From Octopus sinensis (lineage: Eukaryota): DNA of 64,000 bases. Below are positions 5,176 to 54,200 of the stretch, piece after piece. Positions within the stretch are counted from its first letter, which is position 1, and each line of letters opens with the position of its first letter. The DNA is taken from NCBI RefSeq assembly GCF_006345805.1, contig NC_043020.1, forward strand, positions 27,838,001 through 27,902,000, given 5' to 3'. The translations under genes were made by a program, and so were the position numbers. The notes under the pieces are model-generated. The model was not told where the DNA came from, made no database searches, and saw only the letters and a list, made by a program, of their open reading frames with translations.

Positions 5176-5974
5176 CAGGTTTCTAATGATCAGCCATGAT
5201 TTCTATGTTATCAATTTTAGAAAACATGATATTGGTCTCAATAATTTACTTTTGATTTCTTACATTTCAGTGAATGCACCACAATCGATTAATTCTTCCC
5301 AGAACTAAGAACATAAGGAAAAGTGATGATACATTCAAAAAACTTTATTTCGCAAATTCACCGATTCTCTGCACCGACATTTGTCAGTAAACAAATACTT
5401 TCTGGAATTGGATCCTCGGTTTTTGCCACCTTTTAAATACACCAAATGGAATGATTCAACGCGGGATAGATACTATATTCTAAATACCACCACACTGGTA
5501 CATTGAACTGATGCAAAATATAATTAAACAAACAATACAAATTGTATTGCAGACACAGCTTTCAAGGAATTTACTACCATTCTGTATCGTAGCTACACTG
5601 AAATTTTATGAAAAAAATATTATTATACACATCAAGGAAGCGAGTGGAAGTGAACACGCATCTATCAATAACCAATCGGTAACCTCAGTTCTTTCAGCGG
5701 TTTCTAATGGGTGAGTGAAGTCTCGAAATTACTGTAGATAGAAAGACCTGGAAGTTGTGCTGTTAATTTCGGTACTTTACGGAATATAAAAATAATTCCA
5801 GAATCTGTTTTCTCTCTAACTTATTGACACAACCCTGCGCATTCACATTTAGTTCTTTATTCCTATTTCGAAGCAAAGCGAGAACGAAATAACTTACTAA
5901 AGGATTATAACTGACGATGAGACACAAAACATCAATCAAAATCTTATGAAGAATCAATAGAAAGAAACGCAATA
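5176..5974 (+). promoter_or_regulatory. Conserved splice acceptor (AG 5269-5270) and about 700-nt leader of SLC17 copy 1
   Basis: TTTCTTACATTTCAG|TGAATGCACC; the block is homologous upstream of all six CDSs. Confidence 0.7.
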
Positions 5975-7411
5975 ATGTCGAAATTTACCAAGGAAATTAA
6001 GCGTTATTATTCGTGTCGATGGAGATTATGTTATGCCTGTAGTATGGCTTTTCTTCTGATACAAACATTAAGAGTTGATCTAGGTATGGCTTTTGTATGC
6101 ATGTTGAAAACACCGAATCGTACAGCTGAAGGATTAAATTCTACTGCAAGCAACCAGCTTTGTTCTGGTTTGAAGGATCATTCCATCAACCAAACTTTTG
6201 AAGGAGAGTTTGAATGGAGCAACACACTACAATCACATATGTTGGCTGGGTTCTTCTATGGGTATATGGGGGCAGGTTTTGGTGGTGTATTGGCGGACAA
6301 ATATGGTGGGAAAAGGGTTCTGGGAGCTTCACTTCTCTCAGCATCAATTTTGACCATTCTTCACCCAAGTTTATCTCGGATTAGTGGTTACTTTACGCTT
6401 GTTCTAAGGATATTGACAGGAGCAGCATCGGGGCTGTTGCCCCCAGCAATTCAGTCCTTATTTGGACGTTGGGGACCTCCACAAGAGATAAGTTTATTGA
6501 TAGGGTTTGCATATGCAGGTCAAATTCTGGGTAACGTTGTAGGTTTATCAATATCAGGTTACCTCTGTGCTTATGGATTTGATAATGGATGGGGTTCTAT
6601 ATTTTATGTATTTGGTGGATCAACACTATTGTTTTGTTGTGTGTGGTTTTATGTTGTTCACGATAATCCAGAAGTCCATCCTACTATTAGTGAAGAAGAA
6701 CGTTCTTACTTAAACAAAGCTATAAAATGCCAAAACGCAGTTAGAAGGGTGCCGTGGAAACGGTTAATGTTATCACCAGCCGTCTGGGCAGTCAACTTTG
6801 GCTTGTTTGCTTATGCCTGGACGAATGTATCTTTCCAGACATTGCTACCTCTTTATATGAAAGAAACCTTACACGTTAATACAACAGTCAACGGTTTAAT
6901 GTCGTCTGCTCCTTCCATTGGACAAATCATTGCTCTTCCGTTGTGTGGAAGATTTGCAGATTTTTTACGCTCGAACAGATATCTCTCGACTCGAGCTGTA
7001 CGAATTTTATTCCAGACTTTTTCTATGGTGGCTTCAGCAAGTTTGTTGATCGTCATAGGATTTCTCAGATGTGACAAATCCATTCTAATAACTCTCCTTT
7101 TGTTTCTCAGTGGTATAACTCTATCATTTTCCAGTGGTGGAGTTCTCGTCAACAATAATGACTTTGCTCCAAGTTACGCCGGTGTTGTATTTGGAATCTG
7201 TAGCTTCTTTGGCGCAATAGCAGGCAGCCTTTGTTCCGTGGCTGCAAAAGCTCTCACCCCAAACGGTACACAAGAAGAATGGCAGATCGTGTTTGCCTTA
7301 TGTGCTGCTATATGTGTGTCTGGTGCAATATTATTTGCAATATTAGTAAAAACTGAGACGCAAGTTTGGGCGAGATGGGAAGAACCTAAAACAGAAATAG
7401 AAATGAAATAA
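5975..7411 (+). CDS. SLC17/sialin-like MFS anion transporter, paralogue 1 (478 aa)
   Basis: RVDLGMAFVCM, WSNTLQSHMLAGFFYGY, LADKYGGKRV, GWGSIFYVFG, HPTISEEERSY, VPWK, APSYAG, EWQIVF and Q-x-WA motifs of SLC17; about 12 hydrophobic segments. Confidence 0.93.
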   Translation: MSKFTKEIKRYYSCRWRLCYACSMAFLLIQTLRVDLGMAFVCMLKTPNRTAEGLNSTASNQLCSGLKDHSINQTFEGEFEWSNTLQSHMLAGFFYGYMGAGFGGVLADKYGGKRVLGASLLSASILTILHPSLSRISGYFTLVLRILTGAASGLLPPAIQSLFGRWGPPQEISLLIGFAYAGQILGNVVGLSISGYLCAYGFDNGWGSIFYVFGGSTLLFCCVWFYVVHDNPEVHPTISEEERSYLNKAIKCQNAVRRVPWKRLMLSPAVWAVNFGLFAYAWTNVSFQTLLPLYMKETLHVNTTVNGLMSSAPSIGQIIALPLCGRFADFLRSNRYLSTRAVRILFQTFSMVASASLLIVIGFLRCDKSILITLLLFLSGITLSFSSGGVLVNNNDFAPSYAGVVFGICSFFGAIAGSLCSVAAKALTPNGTQEEWQIVFALCAAICVSGAILFAILVKTETQVWARWEEPKTEIEMK

Positions 7412-7689
7412 CCGACCTAGGTTCCTGAGATTTTTTTTGCCGGTTGGCAATTTCTTTCTAATATATGAAGATATGCATAGCAATTTATATGTATGTATGT
7501 ATGGATGGATGGATATATATATATATAAGGTAAGTATGTATGTATCTATGTATGTTCGTATGTATGTCTGAATAGAGCAATATATACACATATATATATA
7601 AATATGTGTGTGTGTGTGTGTGTGTGTGAGTGTGTGTGTGTGTGTGTGTGTGTGTGTGTGTGTGTGTGTGTGTGTGTGTGTGTGTGTGT

Positions 7690-51683: not shown

Positions 51684-52736
51684 AATGTTATCAATTTTAG
51701 AAACCATATTGATCCCGATGATTTACTATTGATTTCTTACATTTCAGAGAATGCGCCACAATTGATTAATTCTTGCCTGAACTAAGAACATAAGGATACG
51801 TAAAGAAATATTCAAAGAACTTTATTTCACCAATTCTACTTCACAGACATTTTTCACTGAATGAATATTTCCTAAAGCTGGACTTCTGTTTTTGCCACAA
51901 GGAAAGGAGCACACAAAATTACTCAACACGGAATAGAAACTACACAAAAGACGCCACCACACTGTTATACTGCACTAACATAAAGTATAACTAGATAACG
52001 AATACATTCTGAAATGCAAATACAAGTTTCCTGGAGTTTACTACCAGTCTATATCGCAGTTTTAGTGAGAATACTCTTAAACAAACCAAAGCTGATTTGA
52101 ACACGCATATTTCAATAACCAGTCAGTTACCACATTCCCTTAAATGCTTTCTAAAATAGCTATTAAGGTGATATATTCACAGCAGACATAGAAGGAACTG
52201 GTTGATGCCATGTTGTAGTTTTCCCAAACATTAAAGTGTTTAAAAGAACCTTAGATTCCGTGTCACCTGTGTCTTCCTGTCACACCGCTGCGCCTTCTCG
52301 GTTAACCTTATTTCTCGATTGTAATCTTGTCTTGACGACTATTTCTAATTAACCAGAAACGAAATATGTTATTAAATGAGCGTAACTGATGTGAATCGAT
52401 AAATGGCATCCATGTTTAACGATAACAAATTGCAAATTATAACAATTATCGTGAAATATAACTGTACAAAAGGCAGCTTCTTCCTCATTTTTGAAGAACA
52501 TATTTCATTCAATGAAAAACATATTTGAGACCCAAGCAAACGGCTTTTATCTGATGTGGTTATAACAAAGCAAACAATATGATGACCTAATCAAATAAAT
52601 ATGATGACCTAATCAAATAAATTACATTGCCTCAATTGTCTGTTAATATTTGTTTCAACATTTAGGATTTACATTAATCATCAATTGATATACTTTCAAA
52701 CAAAGCATTGTAAGGATCGGTCGAAAGGACGCAATA
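51684..52736 (+). promoter_or_regulatory. Splice acceptor (AG 51746-51747) and leader of SLC17 copy 6
   Basis: TTGATTTCTTACATTTCAG|AGAATGCGCC followed by the homologous leader. Confidence 0.7.
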
Positions 52737-54200
52737 ATGTCGAAATTTACCAGTTGTATTAAGCGTTACTGTTCGTGTCGATGGAGACTGTGCTACGCCT
52801 GTGCTATTGCTTTTCTTCTCACGCAAACATTAAGAGTCGATCTGAGCATGGCTTTTGTGTGTATGTTGAAAACGCCCAATCGTACAACTGAGGAACTTAA
52901 CATTACTGCAAATAATCATCATTGTTCTGGTTTAAATGATCATTCTCCGAATCAAAATTACGAAGGGGAATTAGAATGGAGCGATACATTACAATCAAAC
53001 ATGTTGGCCGGTTTCTTCTATGGATACGTATCGACTAATATTTTGGCTGGTGTATTGGCAGACAAATACGGTGGGAAAAGAGTTTTAGGGGTTTCCTTTC
53101 TCTCAGCATCAATTTTGACCATTCTTCACCCAAGTTTATCTCGAATTAGTGGTTACATTACTCTGGTTCTAAGGATATTAACAGGTGTGGCTTTAGGATC
53201 GATATTTCCAGGAATCCAGTCCTTGTTTGGACGTTGGGTCCCTCCAGAGCAAATTAGTTTATTTGTAGGGATTACACTGGCTGGTCAAATTCTCGGGAAT
53301 ATATTAGGCTTTTCAATATCAGGTTTTCTTTGTGTGTATGGTTTTGATAATGGATGGGGTTCTATATTTTATATATTTGGTGGAATATGTTTGGTTTTTA
53401 GTTGTGTGTGGTTTTATGTTGTTTACGACAATCCAGACGTCCACCCCACTATCAGCGAAGAAGAACGTTCTTACTTAAACAAAACTATTACAAGTGAAAA
53501 AGAAGTTAAGAAAATACCTTGGAAGCCAATGCTATCCTCACCTGCTTTGTGGGCAATTACTTTCGGTTTATTTGCTTATGGCTGGACTGATTTATCTTTC
53601 CAGACATTGCTTCCTCTGTATATGAAAGAAGCCTTAAACGTTAAAACCACAACCAACGGTTTAATGTCGTCTGCTCCTTCGATTGGACAAATCTTCGCTT
53701 TACCTTTGTGGGGGAAACTTGCTGATGTTTTACGTTCAAAGAAATGTCTGTCAACTCGTTCTGTGCGAGTTTTATTCCACACTTTGTCTATGTTAGGTTC
53801 AGCAAGTCTGCTAATTGCCATAGGATTCCTCAGATGTGACCAAACCATTCTAATAAGTCTCCTTTTGTTTTTCAGTGGTATAATAATGTCGTTTTCTAGT
53901 GGTTCTGTTTTCGTCAATCACAATGACATTGCTCCAAGTTATGCTGGTATTGTGTTTGGAATTGCCAACACTTTCGCCACAACGTCTGGCAGTATTAGTT
54001 CCTTAACTACAAAAGCCTTAACCCCAAACGGTACACAACAAGAATGGCAACTCGTGTTTGCCTTATGTGCCGCTATATGTGTGTGTGGTGCGATATTGTA
54101 TGCAACTATGGCAAGAGGCGAAATCCAAGAATGGGCGCGTAGCGACGAGTCTGGCGTATCTGTTCATCTCAAAGACACAAAAAGAGAGAAAACAGTCTAA
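52737..54200 (+). CDS. SLC17/sialin-like transporter, paralogue 6 (487 aa, appears the most divergent)
   Basis: Intact ORF with all SLC17 motifs. Confidence 0.93.
   Translation: MSKFTSCIKRYCSCRWRLCYACAIAFLLTQTLRVDLSMAFVCMLKTPNRTTEELNITANNHHCSGLNDHSPNQNYEGELEWSDTLQSNMLAGFFYGYVSTNILAGVLADKYGGKRVLGVSFLSASILTILHPSLSRISGYITLVLRILTGVALGSIFPGIQSLFGRWVPPEQISLFVGITLAGQILGNILGFSISGFLCVYGFDNGWGSIFYIFGGICLVFSCVWFYVVYDNPDVHPTISEEERSYLNKTITSEKEVKKIPWKPMLSSPALWAITFGLFAYGWTDLSFQTLLPLYMKEALNVKTTTNGLMSSAPSIGQIFALPLWGKLADVLRSKKCLSTRSVRVLFHTLSMLGSASLLIAIGFLRCDQTILISLLLFFSGIIMSFSSGSVFVNHNDIAPSYAGIVFGIANTFATTSGSISSLTTKALTPNGTQQEWQLVFALCAAICVCGAILYATMARGEIQEWARSDESGVSVHLKDTKREKTV

Follow-up and report, generated by a model that had tools for sequence, protein, structure and literature searches.

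Where do the transcripts of genes with uninterrupted coding regions begin, and what lies between that point and the ATG? The question is raised by a stretch of 64,000 nucleotides (nt) from Octopus sinensis (assembly GCF_006345805.1, contig NC_043020.1, positions 27,838,001 to 27,902,000 of the forward strand), here called the window and numbered from its first letter. It carries a tandem row of six homologous SLC17/sialin-like units on the + strand, whose coding sequences (CDSs) are intronless. An earlier note on this DNA had claimed that each copy has a distant first exon, spliced to a second exon that holds a long leader and the CDS. For copy 4 this is shown by assembled contigs, in which a distant non-coding first exon is joined to the long leader exon; this is the one junction examined among the five predicted. 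Copies 2, 3, 5 and 6 are predicted from homology to be built in the same way, whereas for copy 1 a profile of the copy 3–5 upstream blocks found no block or first exon within the window. The gene-structure call is correct and partly verified. It is of a known kind, although the leader is unusually long and first exons have clearly been homogenised. We give a probability of about 0.7 to the full reading, namely that copy 4 consists of a distant exon 1 and a single long leader/CDS exon, and that copies 2, 3, 5 and 6 are alike, as tandem duplicates of a retrogene-like sialin.

Splicing of the copy 4 first exon

A search of sequencing runs with positions 20057-30050 listed 24 runs, none of them on record as RNA. 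Contigs of four of these were aligned to 27705-30270; X1, X2 and X4, from three studies, are likely RNA and X18 is probably DNA, the RNA label being a guess. In each of the three likely-RNA runs, a single contig starts at 27770, preceded by a loose 5' end that measures 368 letters at most. The last 30 letters of this loose end correspond to 25391-25420; X4 agrees with that stretch throughout, and X1 and X2 each depart from it by one letter. The same letters show 26 differences from the block upstream of copy 2, five from that of copy 3, one from that of copy 5 and eight from that of copy 6. The copy 5 block is located downstream of the copy 4 acceptor. Furthermore, the 65 intron bases before the acceptor are without cover in all three runs. 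The 2,349-nt GT-AG intron of copy 4 has therefore been removed, and an excision so exact, at canonical sites, speaks for an RNA origin of the contigs. A non-coding upstream exon is thus spliced to the CDS-bearing exon in three of three likely-RNA runs. The loose end of X4 (368 nt, its last 30 letters matched) would reach 25053, 30 nt short of a predicted start at about 25023. The units are laid out as follows, where UTR stands for untranslated region and all features lie on the + strand.

5271..7411, +: copy 1 exon 2; leader 5271-5974, intronless SLC17/sialin-like CDS 5975-7411, 478 amino acids (aa)
9002..9235, +: copy 2 predicted promoter and shortened first exon (nhmmer E 1e-32), donor at 9236
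9236..14559, +: copy 2 predicted 5' UTR intron, 5324 nt, GT-AG
14560..16668, +: copy 2 exon 2; leader 14560-15208, CDS from 15209, frameshift near 15442
17245..17436, +: extra truncated promoter block without a donor (nhmmer E 2e-31)
18100..18637, +: copy 3 predicted promoter and first exon, from homology; donor at 18638
18638..20056, +: copy 3 predicted 5' UTR intron, 1419 nt
20057..22331, +: copy 3 exon 2; leader to 20918, CDS 20919-22331, 470 aa; in-frame upstream ATG at 20799
24880..25022, +: copy 4 predicted promoter, from motif scan and homology; putative start site
25023..25421, +: copy 4 non-coding first exon, from the contig loose end; probable start ~25023
25422..27770, +: copy 4 5' UTR intron, 2349 nt, GTAAGT...CATTTCAG; spliced out in contigs of 3/3 likely-RNA runs
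27771..28678, +: copy 4 retained leader, 908 nt, 13 upstream ATGs; contains candidate second acceptor 28614-28625
28679..30154, +: copy 4 intronless CDS, 491 aa, MFS_1
33782..34326, +: copy 5 predicted promoter and first exon, from homology; donor at 34327
34327..38290, +: copy 5 predicted 5' UTR intron, 3964 nt
38291..40696, +: copy 5 exon 2; leader to 39223, CDS 39224-40696, 490 aa
46445..47351, +: copy 6 predicted first exon remnant; minisatellite 46445-47301, homologous stretch 47267-47351, donor at 47352
47352..51747, +: copy 6 predicted 5' UTR intron, 4396 nt
51748..54200, +: copy 6 exon 2; leader to 52736, CDS 52737-54200, 487 aa

All coordinates given earlier for exon starts, GTAAGT donors, introns and leaders hold. 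The sequence CATTTCAG occurs exactly six times on the + strand, each time directly ahead of an exon start (5271, 14560, 20057, 27771, 38291 and 51748). The GTAAGT donors begin at 9236, 18638, 25422, 34327 and 47352, and GGTAAGTAAAG is present at four of the five and nowhere else. These sites bound introns of 5324, 1419, 2349, 3964 and 4396 nt in copies 2, 3, 4, 5 and 6, respectively, and the leaders between acceptor and main ATG measure 649-989 nt with 9-17 ATGs each. Between copies, intron alignment is confined to about 160 nt at the acceptor, about 56 nt at the donor and scattered repeats. The view that the introns are filled with transposons does not extend to intron 3 (copy 3), which is almost free of detected interspersed repeat (2%).

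The second homologous block that had been described at the donors exists five times, in unequal state. A profile of the copy 3–5 blocks (nhmmer) recovers five upstream blocks and one extra, truncated promoter copy. Full blocks (~570 nt) stand before copies 3, 4 and 5; the copy 2 block is short by ~270 nt before the donor, and that of copy 6 is reduced to a match of only ~115 nt (E 4e-6) adjoining a minisatellite of 21 units of 41 nt; in the 5' part of the copy 6 block homology did not rise above that of shuffles. The last unit of the minisatellite (46445-47301) lies inside the exon 1-homologous stretch, and if transcribed, the 5' UTR of copy 6 would carry an 860-nt repeat. The extra promoter block (17245-17436) stands directly upstream of the full copy 3 block and could be a shadow promoter or a dead remnant.

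Coding sequences and the long leader

The units hold uninterrupted reading frames of 470-491 codons, copy 2 alone being broken by a one-base frameshift near 15442, which may mark either a pseudogene or an assembly error. The CDSs contain no internal intron, as seen in continuous open reading frames (ORFs) in five of six copies and in the copy 4 contigs, which tile the CDS without joints. An MFS_1 domain was matched in all five intact copies, and this domain together with closest similarity to SLC17 members places them among the SLC17/sialin-like MFS transporters. The best solved relative of copy 4 is human sialin SLC17A5 (PDB 8dwi, E 1e-89), followed by VGLUT2/3, and sialin-like or slc-17.2-like are the names carried by the nearest proteins, which come from Octopus sinensis, O. 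bimaculoides, O. vulgaris and Argonauta. In a quick tree of 40 rows (35 of 83 protein matches and five window copies; the chimeric records P0001-P0003, fragments, bacterial matches and copy 2 were left out), the cluster genes form one clade with proteins from Octopus and Argonauta and two further assembly proteins (SH-aLRT 100). The sister of this clade is a separate octopus sialin (XP_029632985.1, P0045), which sits on another contig. Sialin arginines R39, R57 and R168 align to arginine in copy 4, whereas in the places of E171, E175 and H183 copy 4 has T, S and Q. The latter three sialin residues lie in transmembrane helix 4 (TM4) and are important for proton coupling. The TM4 glutamates are absent from all five intact copies, and a counterpart of H183 is kept only in copy 5. 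Substrate and coupling may therefore differ from those of sialin; the lack of the TM4 acidic residues, and of the histidine outside copy 5, makes a proton-coupled sialic acid carrier less likely and leaves the family membership untouched.

Purifying selection on the CDS is shown by a ratio of non-synonymous to synonymous change (dN/dS) of 0.18-0.32 in ten of ten pairs of intact copies. In addition, 12 of the 15 listed CDS differences of the allele seen in X2 are synonymous. Together these values indicate that protein is made from some transcript.

The motif scan of copy 4 gives GATA-type sites at 24911 and 24930, a TATA-like stretch at 24990-24999 and an initiator-like CATTC at 25022, motifs of the kind found in promoters. 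In copies 4 and 5 alike, the CATTC (25022 and 33925) is preceded at about 30 nt by a TATA-like element. A GATA-type site is found in every upstream block scanned, with TAATTA alongside in four of six. The start site of copy 4 would lie near 25023. With this predicted start, the 5' UTR measures about 1,307 nt (36% GC) and contains 21 upstream ATGs (uATGs), opening frames of 2-29 codons, ten of them with a purine at -3. None of the resulting upstream ORFs (uORFs) overlaps the main ATG, which has an A at -3.

The absence of transposons and microsatellites from the leader had been taken as a sign of constraint. The non-genic rate predicts 6.5 microsatellite arrays in the 5,045 nt of leader, and there are none (Poisson P ~0.0015, the copies not being independent), whereas two of the six leaders do carry short tandem duplications (13-nt x3.4 at 38596 and 22-nt x2.1 at 52576). 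Among non-genic windows of equal length, 3-10% are free of both microsatellites and detected interspersed repeats, and 38-51% of microsatellites alone. Divergence of the leader between intact copies amounts to 0.58-1.22 of that at four-fold sites (median ~0.8) and is lower in nine of ten pairs; each pair shows 8-34 gaps, and copies 1 and 2 have 250-nt deletions. In a comparison with the X2 allele, 18 of 908 leader positions and at least 12 of 341 synonymous sites are different (15 of ~22 CDS differences listed), with P 0.14. Constraint is therefore modest, as expected of exonic sequence, and such a pattern fits an ordinary exonic UTR rather than a conserved uORF device.

The further suggestion that the many uATGs imply strongly regulated translation finds little in their distribution. 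The leaders hold 74 ATGs, where dinucleotide shuffles give 92 and the antisense strand 89. Aligned across copies they fall into 48 distinct columns, of which 35 are each found in a single copy and one in all six, so that positions turn over freely and neither uORF positions nor peptides are conserved. The uORF opened by the all-six uATG, the first after the acceptor, spans 4-43 codons with no conserved peptide. GCN4/ATF4-like mRNAs represent the regulated class with conserved uORFs. A survey of 478 eukaryotes describes a general depletion of uAUGs by purifying selection, weaker in lowly expressed genes (PMC7889888), and the leader pattern of the window fits this ordinary regime; octopus and molluscs are not mentioned in the main text of that survey. 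Two other possibilities for the leader were tried and rejected. One is a structured leader or an internal ribosome entry site: the window has no Rfam match, and the copy 4 leader folds less well than shuffles (z +1.63). Decayed coding sequence was searched for by tblastn with 83 relatives, which gave 159 matches outside the CDSs at E up to 10; the 30 matches listed all had E >=0.09, with none in a leader.

The idea of a second intron within the leader concerned a candidate acceptor about 55 nt before the ATG in copies 2-4. It is present there, 53 nt before the ATG, its AG motif being found in three of six copies (15144, 20854, 28614); copies 5 and 6 have AA for AG, and the copy 1 leader has no match, the segment being deleted. 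In copy 4 the site is bridged by X4 contigs 27770-28496 and 28467-29097, with 0 differences from the window, and likewise by X1 and X2 contigs 28471-28689, which pass 28614-28625. No joint or loose end occurs at 28625 in any of the three likely-RNA runs, within the limit that contigs drop rare variants. Over the whole 908-nt leader the contigs continue into the CDS, and apart from the 5' end at the acceptor no loose end and no joint was listed. The assembled form of copy 4 is thus the one with the leader retained, which speaks against the second intron, rare forms excepted.

Several observations weigh against the reading favoured here. Direct junction evidence covers one of the five predicted junctions, the runs are called RNA by guess only, and X18, the run that is probably DNA, has cover in 16 of 30 bins and none at the acceptor, leaving that point without a DNA control. 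A minor short isoform or a cross-unit junction, of the kind that contigs drop, could supply much of the protein. The CDS contigs of X1 are deeper than its leader contigs (~44-55 against 15-21), partly so in X2, with X4 flat; contig depth gives no valid ranking of gene parts, and the pattern leaves room for a shorter isoform. Moreover, 21 uATGs, ten with a purine at -3, are a heavy load for plain scanning. Strong-context uATGs show a raw strand-specific depletion (26 against 46), a candidate signal that was rejected, as it vanishes with homologous sites counted once (21/48, P 0.28). Finally, the retroposition is a proposed rather than an observed step.

Two alternatives follow from the uATG load. 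According to one, the long-leader mRNA is abundant but poorly translated, and the protein comes from a minor isoform, made by splicing exon 1 to the acceptor at 28625 or by starting near the ATG. The acceptor-like AG 53 nt before the ATG in copies 2-4, a uATG load near chance level and the depth of the X1 CDS contigs, unreliable as a ranking, would agree with it. We consider it unlikely: 28625 is passed in all three likely-RNA runs, the contig runs unbroken over the exon 1 junction, the donor-like sites of the copy 4 leader are weak, and the AG is missing from copies 1, 5 and 6, three copies with intact CDSs that are kept by purifying selection. The other alternative makes the leader a selected, uORF-based translational gate that depends on cell type or nutrients, as in Drosophila glia. 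Four of five units are predicted to have a junction-spanning uORF of 11-16 codons that stops at the same position (TAA or TGA), the first uATG after the acceptor is common to all six copies, leader length has been kept at 0.65-1.0 kb in six copies, and shared uATGs are mostly of weak context (11/13 against 16/35 private ones; P 0.022, post hoc). However, the X1/X2 allele alters the ATG of the copy 4 junction uORF, copy 2 is without this uORF, the frame of the all-six uATG has no conserved peptide, most uATG positions are private, and the allele comparison gives no significant constraint; such a gate is quite improbable. Under the favoured reading, ribosomes would get to the main ATG by leaky scanning and by reinitiation after short uORFs, along a leader that is AU-rich and unstructured. 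Protein output per mRNA would be low, and the uORFs would be tolerated rather than act as a conserved switch. A 1.3 kb, 21-uORF leader before a CDS under purifying selection offers a testable case of mollusc ribosomes on uATG-rich leaders.

Exchange between units

Between copies 4 and 5, the first exons share ~96% identity (divergence K 0.044) and the promoters differ by K 0.13 (blocks 24880-25455 and 33782-34360), whereas the leaders are ~71% identical (K 0.36) and dS of the CDS is 0.50. Mosaic identity is also seen between copies 1 and 2 (97% at the acceptor, 65% later in the leader) and among copies 2-4, which are 96% identical around the ATG. The similarity of the copy 4 and 5 first exons is likely due to recent gene conversion or unit shuffling. 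Judging by these identities, it is evident that first-exon blocks were exchanged at the DNA level; gene conversion or unequal crossing-over, rather than cross-unit splicing, would have swapped first-exon and leader segments among neighbouring units. With their nearly identical first exons, copies 4 and 5 present a clean example of promoter-module exchange between paralogues.

Homologous splice sites could also be used across units, as had been raised for exon 1 and a downstream paralogue, so that several paralogues depend on one promoter, or splicing combines two CDSs into a chimeric transporter. In protocadherin/UGT1-like clusters, variable first exons are spliced to shared exons. Here, donors and acceptors are near-identical between units, and two RefSeq proteins are exact two-copy chimeras: XP_036368723.1 combines copies 4 and 5 and is reproduced by a join of 29748 to 40292 (GT-AG), and XP_029650482.2 combines copies 3 and 4 and is reproduced by a join of 22162 to 29930 (GC-AG). 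Each join keeps the register, spans exactly one repeat unit and uses a poor donor (CAA|GTTTGT and CAG|GCAGCC, respectively), the pattern expected of mis-split alignments, and the copy 4 contigs of all three likely-RNA runs cross 29748 and 29930 without a joint or loose end. For these reasons the two chimeras are likely alignment artefacts, and two public protein records for the cluster are thereby likely chimeric. At the copy 4 acceptor, the unbroken contigs carry its own exon 1 only and no cross-unit 5' partner was seen, a result for one acceptor and for contigs, which drop rare forms. With shuffled modules already explained by exchange in DNA, splicing across units is highly improbable. The exact proteins of copies 4 and 5 are absent from the protein collection searched, and the O. 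bimaculoides record P0001 (695 aa) is a two-paralogue fusion too.

A bolder combination would have the leader act as a translational gate keyed to the splice-created uORF in octopod-specific transporters, with first-exon cassettes swapped by gene conversion and occasionally by cross-unit splicing. We regard this as rather improbable; if true, the tissue of expression, the gate on translation and the specificity of the transporter would be three modules, each able to evolve separately.

Origin of the cluster and further features of the window

The favoured reading suggests the following history. A retroposed sialin would have given rise to the intronless CDS, come under an upstream promoter by way of a 5' UTR intron and then been amplified in tandem, after which repeats would have overwritten introns and spacers while the leader stayed repeat-free, presumably because it is exonic. 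In an old, repeatedly duplicated unit, a poly(A) remnant or target-site duplication is expected to have decayed.

Parts of this history have precedents. Among expressed retrogenes, 25-53% are reported to have multiexonic transcripts, mostly via upstream exons (Carelli et al., 2016; PMC4772013), and like the cluster, the retrogenes described there combine a single-exon CDS with a new upstream exon under a distal promoter. In contrast to these vertebrate data, the octopus unit is tandemly amplified, and 0.65-1.0 kb of leader with 9-17 uATGs remains part of its second exon. For the intron-poor arrays of molluscan nicotinic acetylcholine receptor (nAChR) genes, the proposed origin is likewise retroposition followed by tandem duplication, with genes of 0-2 introns (PMC6896357); these encode another protein family, and the passages on the arrays in that article contain no UTR exons or leaders. 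Neuronal leaders of Drosophila resemble that of copy 4 in being long, rich in upstream AUGs and part of expressed mRNAs (PMC11251722). For them, glial repression was shown by ribosome profiling and reporters (PMC11251722), whereas the octopus leaders are known from sequence and contigs, with uATGs mostly unconserved.

Octopus gene-family expansions include the sialins (reviews PMC6110919 and PMC6062618, citing Albertin et al., 2015), and the six genes of the window, of the same family and lineage, belong to this expansion. The relevant passages of the two reviews mention the expansion only, and the window adds the structure of the unit. Splicing in octopus was described as unexceptional by a long-read study (PMC9699675). 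No paper on the structure of this cluster was found in the literature searched, although the annotation of PMC9699675 or RefSeq mRNA records may already show first exons. The finding thus fixes the structure of a known octopus gene expansion that is uncharacterised in the papers searched. It also has a practical side, as promoters 2-6 kb upstream of the ATG would be missed by promoter cloning, knock-out design and read counts from CDS-proximal models.

Downstream of the CDSs, CATAGGTGTGT occurs about 50-60 nt after the stop in copies 4-6 (30203, 40748, 54260), with CATAGGTATAT in copy 2. It could be a weak 3' UTR donor or another 3' motif, and the X2 and X4 contigs extend 10-18 nt beyond it. 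Contigs break off at 30210-30225, just before a (TA)n run, and these ends were not taken as the 3' end of the transcript. A 217-nt block, 81% shared, follows the stops of copies 3 and 4 by 1.3 and 0.35 kb (23665-23881 and 30499-30714) and could be a 3' element or a shared old insertion.

The remaining features of the window are repeats. A reverse-transcriptase element (RVT_1) is found among 1-1535, 2680-3690, 11127-11696 and 43143-43913, with a 99% identical inverted partial copy at 2680-3598; further ORF fragments in these same intervals look Penelope/GIY-YIG-like. Intron 5 contains a 445-nt tandem duplication followed by an inverted copy of 97-99% identity (36294-37851). Two tandem arrays, at 48296-49124 (184-nt units) and 62198-63262 (158-nt units), are related to each other in opposite orientation and resemble amplified pieces of interspersed repeats.

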